Shown: one piece after another, positions 1,929 to 62,681 of the stretch
Numbering within the stretch: position 1 is the first letter of the stretch
Layout of the letters: each line of letters opens with the position of its first letter
DNA from: a virus
Virus record (IMG/VR): IMGVR_UViG_3300032893_000009
Span: 32,001-96,000 of that record
Direction: 5' to 3' (one strand)
Length of the DNA stretch: 64,000 nucleotides
Notes under the pieces: model-generated
Told to the model about the DNA's origin: nothing
Database searches by the model: none
Seen by the model: the letters and a program-made list of their open reading frames with translations, nothing else
Translations under genes and position numbers: made by a program

Positions 1929-2445
1929 GTACATCGCCACCACCTACAAGATCAACGGCGGGCTGCCCCCTGACGAGCAGTTCGCCATGCGGGTTCTTGC
2001 CAGCCGCTGCCGGGAGCTGGATCGCTGGTTCATCATCGAAACCTCTCCTCCCAACGATCCTGCACGACGCAACGCCGAGGCGGAACTTCAGATGGCTCAC
2101 CGCGACACTGGAGAGCTGTTTCGCTGGCGGGTATCCAACCACAGCTTTGGAAGGCTGGGCTGCACCGGCTGCGAGTTCGATCTGGTGGGGCTGGCGCGCG
2201 TGCCTCTTACCGGAGTGTGCCACTGTGGGAAGGGTGTCCTGCATTCTTTGCTGGTGGAATCGCAGCAGGAGTTCGTAGAGGGGCTGGAGGGGTTCTGGAA
2301 GGGGGTAGGACTGTTTCAGGGCCAAGAATCGCTCTGGGGGGCCTCTGGGAGGCCGGGAACGGCCATTTTGGGACCTGGAGGGGGGATTCTGATGGTCTGT
2401 GAGGCCTGCGGGCAGTGGGAGGTGCGGCCATGTCCGGCTTCCTGA
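1846..2445 (+). CDS. Hypothetical protein, Cys-rich (possible Zn-binding)
   Basis: ORF overlapping the helicase end; CxxC/CxC motifs. Confidence 0.5.
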   Translation: MTANQTLQYNTLSASISLIKDKLERIRKYIATTYKINGGLPPDEQFAMRVLASRCRELDRWFIIETSPPNDPARRNAEAELQMAHRDTGELFRWRVSNHSFGRLGCTGCEFDLVGLARVPLTGVCHCGKGVLHSLLVESQQEFVEGLEGFWKGVGLFQGQESLWGASGRPGTAILGPGGGILMVCEACGQWEVRPCPAS

Positions 2446-2765
2446 TGTGCTTGGTGGAGTTTCTGGGCGGCTGGGCTTGGGGGTCCTTTCTGGGCCGGAG
2501 GAAGTACATCCGCTGGGAGGCCGAGCTTAAAACGCGGACGCGGGCGCTGCTGGAGGACCGGGGCAAATTGGAGGAGCGCTTGGAGGCGGAGAAGCAGAGC
2601 ACCCGGAGCGTGGATGCCTTGGTGGTGGAGGACGCAATCAGGAGGGAGGCCCGGGCCAAGGCCGCTTTACGGGCGGTGTTGAAGCAGGATGGGTGCAGCG
2701 AGGCGGAGATCGCCATGGTGATGAGCAACGTGGACAACGTGAAAGACGGAGATTTGCAGGAGTGA
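2430..2765 (+). CDS. Hypothetical membrane-anchored coiled-coil protein
   Basis: GGAGGT RBS; hydrophobic N-terminus followed by a charged helix. Confidence 0.55.
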   Translation: MSGFLMCLVEFLGGWAWGSFLGRRKYIRWEAELKTRTRALLEDRGKLEERLEAEKQSTRSVDALVVEDAIRREARAKAALRAVLKQDGCSEAEIAMVMSNVDNVKDGDLQE

Positions 2766-2786
2766 ATTTCGACGCGCCGGGTAATC

Positions 2787-2816
2787 AGATAACCTTCGGT
2801 TATCTTCTTACTTTTC
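2787..2816 (+). terminator. Probable intrinsic terminator
   Basis: AGATAACC-TTC-GGTTATCT hairpin followed by TCTTACTTTT. Confidence 0.55.
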
Positions 2817-2829
2817 ATTCATCAATAGA

Positions 2830-2947
2830 GACGAAAGACAGATTCTATAGTATGGCTATAGGGTCTTTATGATGGCAGGGGGATGGCAGGATTGATAGGG
2901 AAGGAAGGGGGAGTATGAAACAAGACGCAAAGTGAATTCTCTAGTAT
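2830..2947 (+). promoter_or_regulatory. Two tandem GACG-N14-TAGTAT promoter-like motifs
   Basis: GACG 2830 / TAGTAT 2848 and GACG 2924 / TAGTAT 2942. Confidence 0.6.
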
Positions 2948-2984
2948 GTGGACGTAGGCCGTAAGGGCCACAGGAGGAAACGAT

Positions 2985-3305
2985 ATGCCGAGGCTGGAAA
3001 ACTGGAGCGTGGGACAGGCTGGTCCGCTGGATGCAGTGTTTGGGGTCATTCGCCTGAAGGGTGTGAGCGTGGGCGACGAGCGAATCGATCCGAACACCGG
3101 GAACAGGATGGAGGGGCAGGTGATCACCACTTCGCCGCTCAAGGAATTCAACATCGAGAAGCGGCAGGCGCAGACGCTGCACACCCTGTATGAGCTGGGT
3201 GCGGTCGAAGCGGGCTATGCTGAACACATCAAGGTCAGCGACCCCGAGCGGTATGCCGAGCTGGTGCAGCTGGGCTACATCACCGACAACAGCCCTGCCA
3301 ACTGA
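2985..3305 (+). CDS. Hypothetical phage protein
   Basis: AGGAGG RBS; coding-like codon usage. Confidence 0.7.
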   Translation: MPRLENWSVGQAGPLDAVFGVIRLKGVSVGDERIDPNTGNRMEGQVITTSPLKEFNIEKRQAQTLHTLYELGAVEAGYAEHIKVSDPERYAELVQLGYITDNSPAN

Positions 3306-57723: not shown

Positions 57724-58545
57724 ATGATTGTCATTCGGAACGTCAATCTGCTGGGTGACACGCTGTACACCCTGCGCCCCATAGCCGAGCTGCACATGCA
57801 GAAGCCCTTGGAGCAGATCGTGATCGGCGTGGGACAGGACTTGGCGGGTGAGATGGTGCGCCGCCAGTTCCCCATGCTGTCAGTGCGCGACGCAGGGACG
57901 CTCTCTCCGGTGGAGAACGCCCAAGCCATCGACCTGACTGCAGGACGTGCCGCGCAGCTGGCCGTTGTACAGCTATACCAGTATCATCGCCGGGTGCATA
58001 TCTCGCAGTGCTTCGCATGGTTGCTGGGAGTGAACACCGATCACTGGGTTGGGGTGCCCGCGCCCCTGACTGGATGGGCAAACATCCATCCGAGAAACAC
58101 CGACGTTCACTACGCGCTCATCGCTCCGTTCTCGCGTTCCTGTTCGAGGCACGTGGGCATGCGTCCCAACAAGACCCCGGACCACGAGCGCTGGATGCAG
58201 GTGATCGAGTGGCTGCGTGATGAACGTGGTTTGCAGCCCACCATTCTGGCTGGGCCGAATGATAACTGGACTGGTTTCCAGTGTGCCAAGACAACCGCCA
58301 GCGACCTTGACGACATGACCAATCTGCTGCGTCATGCTGATTTGATTCTGACGGTGGATAACGGCATCGGCCATCTGGCCAGCGCTCTTGGCTGTAAGAC
58401 GCTGATCCTCTGGCCGCCCATGTCCGGCGTGGATTTCATCGGGCCTCTCTATAATAAATCGACACGGCTGTTGTTCATGCACCCCGAGCGGGTGCGCGGC
58501 GATCAGCTGCTGGAGATCATCAAGCGCGAGGAGAAACTGGTATGA
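57724..58545 (+). CDS. GT9 (heptosyltransferase-like) glycosyltransferase
   Basis: LLGDTLYT, IAPFS, LTVDNGIGHLASALG. Confidence 0.8.
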   Translation: MIVIRNVNLLGDTLYTLRPIAELHMQKPLEQIVIGVGQDLAGEMVRRQFPMLSVRDAGTLSPVENAQAIDLTAGRAAQLAVVQLYQYHRRVHISQCFAWLLGVNTDHWVGVPAPLTGWANIHPRNTDVHYALIAPFSRSCSRHVGMRPNKTPDHERWMQVIEWLRDERGLQPTILAGPNDNWTGFQCAKTTASDLDDMTNLLRHADLILTVDNGIGHLASALGCKTLILWPPMSGVDFIGPLYNKSTRLLFMHPERVRGDQLLEIIKREEKLV

Positions 58546-59203: not shown

Positions 59204-59671
59204 GTGCCCATTCGCATGACCAAAGCTGAGCTGCTGGCCGTTCGTGTTGAGGAGCGGGCCAAGATGCGCGTGAAGCAGAAGCAATCAGCCTTCATGCGCC
59301 GCACCCTTTCCATCTACAACGGGCAGAACAAGCGTATAGAGGCTGCCAACGCCGGGGCGCTGCCCTACACCCTTGCTGAGTTCCGCAGCGCAGCCCAGCG
59401 GGCTCTGGACACTGGCTGCTGCTTCTATTGCGGCACCAAGCTGACAGTGCGCAATCTGACTCCTGACCACAAGGTGGCGCTGGCGGCCTGTGGCAGCTGG
59501 AATCTGGACAACCTCGCGTGGTGCTGCCAGAGCTGCAACTGGGAAAAGGGACGGCTCAGCGCGACCGAGTTTCAGGAGCTGCTGCTGTTCCTCGACGAGC
59601 ACCTGAGCCCGGCATCATCCGCCGACGTGAAGCGGCGCTTGAGCATCGGTGGCAAGTGGAGCTGGAAATGA
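59204..59671 (+). CDS. HNH endonuclease (McrA-like fold)
   Basis: CFYCG...DHKVAL..G....NL...CQSCN..K. Confidence 0.85.
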   Translation: MPIRMTKAELLAVRVEERAKMRVKQKQSAFMRRTLSIYNGQNKRIEAANAGALPYTLAEFRSAAQRALDTGCCFYCGTKLTVRNLTPDHKVALAACGSWNLDNLAWCCQSCNWEKGRLSATEFQELLLFLDEHLSPASSADVKRRLSIGGKWSWK

Positions 59672-60161: not shown

Positions 60162-60475
60162 TAACCGATTCGACGTGGTATGAGGTGGAGTGGCGCATCG
60201 CAACCCACCCCGCTAATCCGTGGCACCGTTACTGCGACGATCCTCTGAGCTATGACAATGCTCTGGTTTTCAAAAAGGACCATGAAGCGAGCGGTCCTTA
60301 CGAGTGTCGCATTGTGCGCGTCACGATGACTCGTGAGGTGATTGACGAAGCTGCTTGGAAGGGATTCTGACATGAAGACCAAGCCTCTGCCGCCGAAATT
60401 GAAGGCACACTACGAGCGCAGGAACAAAATTTGGAAGGAGGCTGCTATGCCCCTTGGATCGGAGGTGCAACGCGC

Positions 60476-62531
60476 ATGCTGACACGCCAAAATTCCGTAT
60501 GTTTTCTAGGAGCTTGGTTGGACGCATGCGCGTGACCATGCTCTTTGGCGCTTCTACTACCCGCACCAGAACATCCCCGGGTCGAGCTTCTACTGCTTCG
60601 CCAACGCCCCTAACTTCGACGTGATCGCGGGCTGCGACGTGGTGGTGGTGCAGCGCTGCTGTTCCCTGCCCCAGTTCAACTTCATCAACACCTGCCGGAG
60701 TCTGGGCGCGAAGATCATCTACGATCTGGACGACGATGTGTGGGACCTGCCGGAGTACAACCCCGCGCACCAGCCGCTCAAGCAGATGCGCGAGGGTTTC
60801 ATCCAGTGCATCCGGGTGACCGATCTGGTGACCTGTTCCACCAAGACGCTGGCCAAGCGCATCAAGGCCAACGTGAAGCACATGATCAACCCGGCCACGC
60901 GCCGGGAGATTCCCATCGTGGTGTGCGAGAACTGGATGGAGGAGCGGTTGTACGCGACGCCGATGCCGCGCCCCGAGTTCATTGTCGGCTGGAGTGGTTC
61001 GAGTTCCCACGTGGGCGATCTGGAGCTGGTCTACGATGCCCTTAAAGGGGCTGTAGAGGCCCGCCCTGATGCCGTGGTGGAGTTCCGGGGCTGCGAGCCC
61101 AGCGACCGCCTGCGCACCCTGCCTAACTTCCAGCACCGGCCATGGTGTCCGGTGGCCGAATTCTCCGCGCGCATGCCGGTGTGGGGCTGGAGCGTGGCTC
61201 TCGCGCCGCTGACCGACCACGCTTTCAACGAGGCCAAGTGTCTCGCGCCCAGCACATCTATTATCGGCAAGAAATGTGGCCGCTTAGTGCGCACCAATTT
61301 AGCCGACTTTCTCAGTGACGGTGATAATCACATGCTGCCCGGTCCTGATGGACGATGGAGGCGTGTTACGGCATGGGAAAAACAGCCTTTTGGGGCAGCA
61401 TTGTCTGTGCACATGAAGGGCGGTGACATGCTGCATGTGACCCCCAAGCACCGCTTTATTCTTGACGACGGAAAAGAGGTGTGCGCTAAGGATATTAAGC
61501 CCGGGATGATTTTGCGGGAGGCGGACCTGTCTCCGTTAATCGACGATTCTACGGGTCTGCTTGACTTCGAGGCAGGTTGGTTTGTCGGGCATTTTATCGG
61601 TGACGGCAATTGGGGTATGCAATGTGGATCAGGAAAGCGGGGAGGGAATAATCAAGTTGGCTTCGCATGCCATGCGGACCAGAATGTTTTGCATCACAAG
61701 ATCAGGAAATTTGCTGAGAAGCATCATGCGGTGGTAACTGAGTCCGTGATCAGTGCGCGTGGTATCCGTCTGGAGGTGAGTGGAGCGTATGTACATGGTC
61801 TGTTGCGCCAGTGTGTGATTGGGTCCACTAGCCAAGACAAGAGGCTGTCTGTGGCTGCGTGGAATGCGGGCAGGCAGTTTTTACAGGGTGTCCTGATAGG
61901 TTGGCTGGAGGCCGGCGGAAGTTATGCCAAGCCAACTTCAGCTGAGAGGTCTGGACGACGCCCCGGTACATGGAACTTCAGTATAACTCGTAACTGGGGA
62001 TGGCTACGTGACGTGCAGGCTATGTGCTCAGTTCTGGGCTACAGGATGCGCTATCGACGTGGTTTTGCTTCTTGTAAGGGAAAGCAGTTCAAAGTGGTGC
62101 GCGGGTCGATCAACCTTGCATACGTCCCTTATCAGTCGAACGTCTCTCCATTCGAGGTTGCAAGTGTAGAGCACATTCGCACTTCTACTATTGCTGTGGA
62201 GGTTGAGGGTGACCATCTCTTCGTCTTGCCCAGCGGTCTCGTCACGCACAACAGTGCCATCAAAATGTTTGAAGCCGCATATTGCCGCATTCCATGCCTT
62301 GCCAGCTGGTCGAAGCCTTATGACGACTTCACCAGCCACGACCCCGAGCTGCGCTGGTTACTATGCGCTGGTCAAAGCGCTTGGCAACCCAAACTGCGTG
62401 ATCTGGTGTGTGATGAGGCGCGACGTATCGATCTGGGAAACCGGATGTACAACGTCCTGCACGAACACTATTCCTTCGACCGGCCCCACCCCGGGTGGGC
62501 CGAGGCGCTGAGGATGGTAAGGGGGCTGTGA
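60476..62531 (+). CDS. GT-B (GT4-like) glycosyltransferase with intein, interrupted by a 10-nt coding gap at 60533-60542
   Basis: VVVQR, YDLDDD, GWSGSSSH..DL, APL....FN.AK|S.IK..E; RBS GGAGGT and ATG 60476 lie in a different frame from the body. Confidence 0.75.
61239..62252 (+). mobile_element. Intein (338 aa) with LAGLIDADG-type domain in the glycosyltransferase
   Basis: K|CLAPSTSI...VTPKHRF...FVGHFIGDG...LPSGLVTHN|S; GC drop. Confidence 0.92.
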
Positions 62532-62681
62532 TGCGCTGGTTGATGAAGTTCTTCGTGCATCTGATCGATCTGCTGACCGGCTTGGCCATGCTCATGCTGA
62601 TGTTCATCGGCGTGGTGGTTGCGTTGCCTTCTGCATTCGTTCACGGCCTGACCGACGAAATCCTCGGAGAGGAGGGGTCCG

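Follow-up and report, generated by a model that had tools for sequence, protein, structure and literature searches.

A ten-nucleotide coding gap in a phage glycosyltransferase gene, with shorter counterparts at the same junction in related genes, suggests a site where ribosomes slip or hop

How could a phage glycosyltransferase be produced from a gene whose reading frame is broken, only 19 codons after its start, by ten nucleotides (nt) that begin with a stop codon? This question is raised by a 64,000-nt stretch of virus DNA (hereafter the window), which corresponds to bases 32001-96000 of the 118,881-bp IMG/VR virus record IMGVR_UViG_3300032893_000009, a record with direct terminal repeats. 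The glycosyltransferase gene in question also carries an intein, and its codons 19 and 20 are separated by a 10-nt coding gap (Table 1). Our study identified interruptions at the same spot in 7 of the 10 contigs of the clade to which this gene belongs, with 1-, 6- and 9-nt versions in the relatives, a pattern suggestive of a site that makes ribosomes slip or hop. We consider some functional recoding at the gap to be quite probable; that the window in particular uses a short programmed translational bypass (a "stop-hop"), in which a 10-nt hop is made over UGA, is a reading to which we give roughly even credence.

The frame that starts at ATG 60476 reads MLTRQNSVCFLGAWLDACA and ends at TGA 60533-35. 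This ATG overlaps the stop codon of a short upstream open reading frame (ORF) in the sequence ATGCTGA, and the two are probably coupled in translation; the 20 C-terminal residues of the upstream product are 85% identical in two relatives (contigs L083 and L084), and a Pfam search with it returned no family. The long frame of the enzyme lies at +1 relative to ATG 60476: a TAG stands in it at 60507, the stretch from 60510 to 62531 is free of stops and reads ...ARDHALWRFYYPHQNIPG..., and a search for ATG, GTG or TTG found none in it upstream of GTG 60621. The start with its overlap, the TGA, the TAG and the lack of a start codon before 60621, together with the Shine-Dalgarno-like GGAGGT, had been described in an earlier, purely sequence-based reading of this DNA (hereafter the original prediction), and every one of its statements about the sequence was confirmed. 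Past the gap there are 662 open codons, those of the intein included, and no further decay of the gene was seen. The insert can be placed in registers up to 4 nt apart, since deleting any block from 60529-38 through 60533-42 leads to the identical protein. With 60300-62600 as the query, blastn found nothing in the phage collection, and the best match in a scan of bacterial and archaeal genomes (69 relatives) showed 38% identity, and therefore no prophage copy is represented there.

The gap recurs in independently assembled sequences. Logan contigs of three wetland runs (X1, X2 and X3) were aligned to 60200-61200: a contig of X1, which may be the run that the record comes from, covers this segment in full with 0 differences, and a 219-nt contig of X2, a run from another sample and another study, spans the gap (60443-60661) with 0 differences and 0 gaps; in the X3 contigs the gap site lies outside the coverage. 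Because the X2 contig carries the 10 nt, the gap is not the artefact of one assembly, and the assembly error that the original prediction had left as an alternative is now very unlikely. No contig without the 10 nt was found among those of X1 and X2, in which rare variants would be invisible.

The ten bases are foreign to the protein family. A search with the N-extein yielded 99 homologues among 281 candidates, and the closest full-length one, P0001 (343 aa, 77% identity, N-terminus MLKRTNSVCFLGAWLDACALWRFYYPH), reads LDACALWRFYYPH uninterrupted, with both pieces of the window gene adjacent; window bases 60533-60542 are therefore extra. The N-terminal piece is present in 61 of the 99 homologues, and in all 61 the motif D-x4-W-R-x3-P is free of insertions and deletions (indels), so that the contiguous D-A-C-A-L-W-R that homologues had been predicted to show is indeed found. 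An alignment of 24 sequences (A1) shows no variation at D16, C18, W21 or R22. The AlphaFold model of P0001 (predicted local distance difference test, pLDDT, 88.5; predicted template modelling score, pTM, 0.87) contains a strand beta-1 at residues 8-12 and a helix alpha-1 at residues 17-28, whose first turn, within a GT-B fold, holds the junction. The GT-B (GT4-like) assignment follows from the two Rossmann-like domains of this model and from its likeness to solved GT4 enzymes, the top Foldseek matches being BshA, PimA, MshA and TreT (E down to 6e-10, template modelling scores of 0.6-0.68); a Pfam search with P0001 returned no family, and PF13524 is precomputed for some homologues. The 61 indel-free homologues and the predicted helix position together suggest that the junction does not tolerate added residues.

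Special weight is given to the relatives whose DNA could be read across the same site. From 101 IMG/VR relatives and 86 metagenome relatives, 80 were kept in each case, and the 5' end of the gene was readable in 28 distinct contigs including the window (duplicates L086, L090 and L116 counted once). Interruptions, counted from DNA-verified cases only, are present in seven of these 28 contigs (window, L004, L005, L082, L083, L084 and L087). All seven fall within five codons, in the W-L-D-A-C-A-L stretch, and take four forms, A to D in Table 1; in every one of them TGA-C stands directly after the last upstream codon. In form A, +1 reading restores W-L-D-A-C. In forms B, C and D, the sole same-box triplet at any offset is the one right before the codon at which reading would resume, and in the window GCT is the sole GCN triplet at offsets 1-10 past the candidate take-off codon; for comparison, the proportion of the window's 1150 TGA triplets followed by a same-box triplet is 0.087 at +6, 0.092 at +9 and 0.064 at +10. 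Every interrupted gene has a start codon and a purine-rich ribosome-binding site before its short upstream piece, this site being GGAGGT again in L083 and L087, and a strong purine-rich one in L004, L005 and L082.

A maximum-likelihood tree of the gene minus its first 20 codons (14 sequences; L003 and L084 omitted as duplicates) groups all the interrupted genes with the intact L002 and L085 in one clade with a support of 1.000; this clade comprises 10 contigs, and none of the 18 contigs outside it is interrupted. The window and L083 are sisters, also with a support of 1.000. Both have GACGCATGCGCGTGAC, their gaps measure 10 and 9 nt and so differ in frame, and both gaps end with an Ala codon followed by Leu-Trp. 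The gap whose retention in relatives had been proposed as a check is thus kept in the sister lineage L083/L084, as GCG TGA C with 9 nt instead of 10. A hop tolerates gaps of different frame in which the Ala codon is kept, whereas a single frameshift or read-through mechanism does not, and this sister pair is the strongest single argument for re-pairing.

The interrupted genes show purifying selection. Nei-Gojobori estimates were made on the columns ungapped in all 14 sequences (334 codons), and for the gene body, that is, the 314 codons past the first 20, the ratio of non-synonymous to synonymous divergence (dN/dS) is 0.07-0.12 in every pair with unsaturated dS. The window and L083 differ by a dS of 1.20 and a dN of 0.143 (ratio 0.12), and L004 and L005 by a dS of 0.41 and a dN of 0.051 (ratio 0.12). 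In the first 15 codons, the window and L083 show synonymous differences at 6.0 of 10.2 sites and non-synonymous ones at 5.0 of 34.8, and by this measure the upstream piece is conserved as protein. No second stop or frameshift was found in the six distinct interrupted genes, the inteins of the window and L087 included, and three-taxon branch ratios, calculated by hand, are about 0.12 for L004, about 0.13 for L005 and about 0.08 for the intact L002. The original prediction would have been weakened by other decay in this gene; the open codons past the gap, the intact intein and the dN/dS of about 0.12 against L083 point the other way.

Table 1. Features of the interrupted glycosyltransferase locus in the window, and the four gap forms found in the clade.
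Feature	Position or contig	Strand	Remarks
Upstream 36-codon ORF	60372..60482	+	ATG 60372, TGA 60480-82
Shine-Dalgarno-like GGAGGT	60461..60466	+	9 nt 5' of ATG 60476
Glycosyltransferase codons 1-19	60476..60532	+	frame of ATG 60476; strand beta-1, D-A-C motif
Predicted interrupted 14-bp hairpin	60509..60544	+	gap pairs with codons 12-16; minimum-energy fold
Candidate take-off codon GCG (Ala19)	60530..60532	+	
10-nt coding gap TGACCATGCT	60533..60542	+	UGA 60533-35, then C
Candidate landing codon GCT	60540..60542	+	last 3 bases of gap
Remaining N-extein	60543..61238	+	from CTT (Leu20), LWRFYYPH...FNEAK
Intein, 338 codons	61239..62252	+	within glycosyltransferase after ...FNEAK; Cys first, His-Asn last, then Ser
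C-extein, 92 codons and stop codon	62253..62531	+	
Gap form A, 1 nt	L004, L005, L082		TGG CTT TGA CGC...; the extra T gives the prfB heptamer CUU UGA C
Gap form B, 6 nt	L087		CTT (TGACTG) GAC; in frame
Gap form C, 9 nt	L083, L084 (identical)		GCG (TGACTGGCG) CTG TGG; in frame
Gap form D, 10 nt	window		GCG (TGACCATGCT) CTT TGG; frame +1

How, then, might the two pieces be joined? The window gap has several of the features by which short bypasses of the phiHau3 type are recognised: a frame-disrupting insert that is absent from homologues in which the flanks are adjacent, a UGA right 3' of the take-off codon (as in all seven interrupted contigs), and a same-box landing codon directly 5' of the codon at which decoding resumes. 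We propose that translation begins at ATG 60476 through coupling to the upstream ORF and that, with 19 residues made, ribosomes would pause with peptidyl-tRNA-Ala on GCG 60530-32 and a poorly terminating UGA-C in the A site, UGA-C being presumably a weak terminator in the host. In a fraction of the ribosomes the peptidyl-tRNA would unpair, the mRNA would slide by 10 nt, and the tRNA would re-pair with GCU 60540-42, the first GCN triplet that it meets. Decoding would restart at CUU 60543, and at the first turn of helix alpha-1 the product would have the ...L-D-A-C-A-L-W-R-F-Y-Y... junction exactly as it is conserved in homologues, with the intein spliced out later. In the relatives, the corresponding re-pairing would be CUU to UUU at +1 (as in prfB), CUU to CUG at +6, and GCG to GCG at +9, and peptidyl-tRNA re-pairing with UGA-C in the A site could thus be a single idea that covers all four forms. 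The purpose would likely be a low enzyme level, or a level tied to UGA termination in the host (release factor 2). We infer the expression of the gene, the formation of the junction by hopping, its efficiency and its purpose from sequence. An extension of this proposal, which we put forward only tentatively and consider somewhat doubtful, is that the site is an evolvable recoding site, at which UGA-C-triggered re-pairing at +1, +6, +9 and +10 nt has been interchangeable within this glycosyltransferase clade.

Several observations weigh against the proposed hop. The take-off and landing codons are synonymous and not identical (GCG and GCU), and one tRNA-Ala must read both. The nascent chain has only 19 residues, and a peptide signal like that of T4 gene 60 is therefore unlikely. 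Stop-hops in Escherichia coli constructs are inefficient, at about 1%. The matched triplets could in part be a by-product of the origin of the inserts, such as a local duplication within a GC-rich quasi-palindrome, and the 9- and 10-nt gaps probably share ancestry, so that they are not independent events. Form A is found both in a basal position (L082) and in L004 and L005, and the intact L002 nests with the latter two, which implies frequent gain or loss of the interruption. Neither an RNA structure nor an internal Shine-Dalgarno sequence common to the four gap types was found. The called N-termini of two homologues, P0003 (MT-LWR, about 5 nt) and P0088 (MHALKT-LWR, about 7 nt), would correspond to further gaps, although these are back-translated guesses, and the back-translated triplet before the resume codon is ACN and not an Ala codon in them. 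Finally, GCG UGA C is described as a known +1 shift site, that of yeast antizyme (PMC5009743), and a +1 shift is therefore a live alternative for the window.

One rival reading, which we regard as unlikely, is that the interrupted genes are null alleles. Under this explanation the G-A-W-L-D-A-C-A stretch, which is GC-rich and quasi-palindromic, would be a mutational hot spot in a dispensable gene that is recurrently and recently inactivated, and no full-length enzyme would be made. The site does lie in or beside predicted hairpins of 7-14 bp, in interrupted genes and in the intact L085 alike, and, on our reading, parts of the inserts resemble the adjoining sequence. Merely doubling a T yields the 1-nt form and with it, automatically, the TGA, and the presence of this form in two distant branches with an intact gene nested among them fits frequent gain and loss. 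However, all lesions fall within 5 of about 340 codons with no second lesion in six of six genes, and each multi-base insert has an in-frame TGA-C at its start and a same-box triplet at its end. It could be argued that pairwise dN/dS mostly reflects the history before a recent lesion; against this, the window and L083 share the start of the gap at a dS of 1.2, L004 and L005 share the 1-nt form at a dS of 0.41, both pairs with ratios of 0.12, and the three-taxon branch ratios are about 0.12 (L004), about 0.13 (L005) and about 0.08 (the intact L002). The inteins are open in the window and in L087, and the window allele is present in two different samples.

A programmed +1 frameshift at GCG UGA C is, in our estimation, unlikely as the explanation of the window. 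Here the peptidyl-tRNA-Ala would stay on GCG or move by one base, GAC would be read next, and D-H-A would be added between Ala19 and Leu20; in the relatives, a +1 shift would take place at CUU UGA C, and UGA would be read through in the in-frame forms. A gap of 10 nt equals +1 modulo 3, the +1 frame is open from 60510, and the site shared with yeast antizyme is credited with high intrinsic shiftiness in PMC5009743. Three of the relatives, L004, L005 and L082, have the exact prfB heptamer CUU UGA C as given in PMC5289835, and the called N-terminus of P0007, MRDQA-LWR, fits a gap of about 10 nt like that of the window (back-translated, from the protein only), with the +1 reading of this similar gap open in another phage. 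The added residues count against this reading: they would enter a motif that, at the first turn of helix alpha-1, is free of indels in 61 of 61 homologues, and they would differ among the relatives (D-H-A, x-L-A and x-L). In addition, L083 has the same heptamer as the window but a 9-nt gap that is in frame, so that a +1 shift there leads to nonsense, and L087, with its 6 nt in frame, cannot use CUU UGA C productively, with the consequence that three mechanisms would be needed within one small clade. The Shine-Dalgarno-like element that prfB has 3 nt upstream is also missing. The programmed hopping put forward in the original prediction is favoured by the comparative checks, with the reservation that a +1 shift at GCG UGA C would restore the frame as well.

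Other routes to a full-length product are improbable. The sequence TGCGCG would let GCG re-pair perfectly 2 nt upstream, but such a -2 slip on GC-GCG would put four residues (R-D-H-A) into the indel-free motif and fails in the in-frame relatives; removal of the gap from RNA or DNA in a subpopulation, for which the invisibility of rare variants in contigs leaves some room, is opposed by the lack of any contig without the 10 nt among those of X1 and X2; re-initiation after UGA finds no start codon in the enzyme frame before 60621; and for transcriptional slippage there is no homopolymer run. A sequencing or assembly artefact, to which a metagenome assembly of modest depth (11.4 in X1) might be prone, is hardly credible in view of the 10 nt recurring with 0 differences in independent Logan contigs from two samples and studies and of the related gaps in six other contigs from other projects.

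The 70-nt fold of the window has an energy of -23.5 kcal/mol (z = -1.86), and 12 of 200 shuffled sequences fold at least equally well, which is weak support. The GCATG/CATGC hairpin that the original prediction had drawn around the take-off codon received no support as such: the 5-bp pairing is possible on paper and is absent from the minimum-energy fold. The 1- and 6-nt sites lie in the loops of predicted 7-8 bp hairpins, L083 has a 4-bp stem only, and the intact L085 also folds. An Rfam search gave no match, only two chance-level scores far below the threshold. A permissive scan of the genome for a stop codon and a same-box triplet within 15 nt, with both frames open, returned 390 sites; the motif is common, and the significance of the gap therefore comes from homology and not from the pattern. 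A reassigned stop codon or a phage suppressor tRNA was considered and rejected, since TGA ends 59 of the 104 long ORFs of the phage and no tRNA genes were found in it; reassignment of TGA would not mend the frame in the window in any case. A GC-rich hairpin centred on the W-L-D codons is predicted in L085 (about 1534-1559, intact), L004 (3006-3030) and L087 (1302-1327); it may have been conserved as part of the mRNA, or it may be what makes the site prone to mutation.

Among known systems, the closest to the window is the terminase of the Streptomyces phage phiHau3, for which the original prediction had correctly named a 10-nt gap: the account in PMC10732093, citing Smith et al. 2013, describes two 10-nt gaps headed by UUA, with 7-nt gaps in two prophages, and a bypass junction peptide that mass spectrometry detected in E. 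coli once UUA had been replaced by UAA. As in that account, the window has a short frame-disrupting insert that is absent from counterparts, flanks that are adjacent in homologues, a junction whose conservation leaves no room for added residues, a slow-to-decode codon at the 5' end of the gap and a gap length of 10 nt. The trigger here is UGA-C, whereas in phiHau3 this role falls to UUA, a rare Leu codon; a glycosyltransferase gene is affected and not a terminase gene, with the site at codons 19-20; at this site the relatives also show 1-, 6- and 9-nt forms, of which two keep the frame; and the link to the Streptomyces bldA tRNA and life cycle that is proposed there does not apply here.

As described for T4 gene 60 (PMC5009743; bioRxiv 10.1101/2022.08.31.505936), a take-off codon is followed by a stop, decoding resumes at the codon right after the landing codon, a single polypeptide would arise from two ORFs, and a phage gene lies near mobile elements, which here means the intein. 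In contrast to gene 60 as it is described there, the gap has 10 nt and not 50, the codons are synonymous and not identical, and the window offers no evidence of a nascent-peptide signal, of such a take-off stem-loop or of a Shine-Dalgarno sequence in the gap; the two genes are not homologous, and no mobA-type element is shown here. The window does not fit the gene 60 type of bypass, on account of its synonymous codons, 10-nt gap, weak and unshared fold, 19-residue chain and lack of an Rfam match. The synthetic stop-hops of Weiss et al. 1987, as presented in PMC5009743, resemble L087, in which CUU UGA CUG would be nine bases for one residue; those were reporter constructs, whereas the present candidates are natural phage genes under purifying selection. 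The part of the 2016 review by Atkins and colleagues that deals with them (PMC5009743) states that natural in-frame stop-hops were not known.

With prfB, as described in PMC5289835 and PMC5009743, the relatives L004, L005 and L082 share the heptamer CUU UGA C, which is read Leu-Asp after the shift, and an early site (codons 15-16, against 25-26 in E. coli prfB), and UGA-C is common to prfB and all four gap forms. The window differs in having GCG instead of CUU and thus lacks the heptamer; the Shine-Dalgarno-like element about 3 nt 5' of the site is absent in the window, L004, L005 and L082, and the AGGAG of the window lies 17 nt upstream of the shift codon. The gene does not encode a release factor, and any feedback would therefore be sensing and not autoregulation. 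The byps of Magnusiomyces capitatus mitochondria, as PMC5009743 portrays them, are likewise short inserts marked by an unused or stop codon in which take-off and landing codons do not always match perfectly; they differ in being 81 mitochondrial sites in many genes with relaxed decoding, whereas here there is one site in one phage gene family whose hosts terminate at UGA.

Regarding the rest of the gene, the intein is identified from its sequence by the N-terminal Cys, the C-terminal His-Asn followed by Ser, and the absence of the insertion from homologues. Pfam Intein_splicing matches it with E = 2e-5 and 24.9 bits, below the gathering cut-off of 35.8. L087 has an open intein at the same site (2027-3037, 72% identical), all other relatives read as DNA lack it (genes of about 340 codons), and a search for longer homologues matched only the products of the window and L087. 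The interior of the intein, by eye, presumably resembles a LAGLIDADG-type endonuclease.

The 5' ends of related genes call for some caution. Truncated protein starts (in about 30 of the 99 homologues the called protein begins no earlier than LWR) were considered as a sign of interruption and rejected, because intact loci are truncated too, as for P0094 (L008), P0095 (L095), P0112 (L002) and P0023 (L006). In L002/L003, L006, L008/L116 and L095 the 5' end is intact, the called start is an internal Met all the same, and the true start overlaps or just follows the stop codon of the preceding gene. In the gene body L002 shares 90% identity with L004 and L005, but its first 15 codons (about the first 60 nt of the gene) and the upstream region are unrelated in sequence to theirs; the 5' end has therefore apparently been exchanged by recombination, with a breakpoint near the site. 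In L097, a distant relative on a single low-depth contig of 1101 nt, an in-frame TGA (about 591-596) occupies a conserved Leu in ...TC-x-x-L-G-x-K-I-I-Y-D-L-D-D, which could be a nonsense mutation, an error or read-through.

The surroundings of the gene have some features of their own. About 800 nt separate the glycosyltransferase from an HNH endonuclease gene upstream of it (59204-59671; Pfam HNH_5, E = 4.5e-9), which is syntenic in L002, L004, L005 and L082 and partly in L083, without correlation with the interruption. Protection against a neighbouring homing endonuclease, as proposed for the gap of T4 gene 60, was considered and is not discriminating, with homologues of the HNH gene upstream of interrupted (L004, L005, L082 and L083) and intact (L002) loci alike. 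A second glycosyltransferase gene (57724-58545; family 9, heptosyltransferase-like, E = 5.5e-8) is found 2-3 genes upstream and is conserved in L002, L004 and L005, and by gene content the locus looks like a small glycosylation module.

Very few natural instances of bypassing are known, namely those of T4 gene 60 with its homologues, the byps of yeast mitochondria, and the candidate phiHau3 terminase. In our literature search, neither a bypass nor a shift turned up for any phage glycosyltransferase; short programmed bypassing itself is known, and what is new is the series of four gap forms at one glycosyltransferase junction. The case also matters for annotation, since gene callers truncate the interrupted genes and place the protein start either at V/M-IAGCD or at a Met further inside. 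One conserved junction interrupted in four ways amounts to a set of mutants supplied by nature, in which the gap measures 1, 6, 9 or 10 nt and the take-off codon is one of two; this set could show what a short hop needs, how it relates to +1 frameshifting and whether it responds to release factor 2. If the site is indeed an evolvable one, in-frame stop-hops would for the first time be known from natural genes, an evolutionary continuum would link short bypassing with +1 shifting of the prfB type, and the phage would, through this site, set the level of a modifying enzyme or use it to sense release factor 2 activity.

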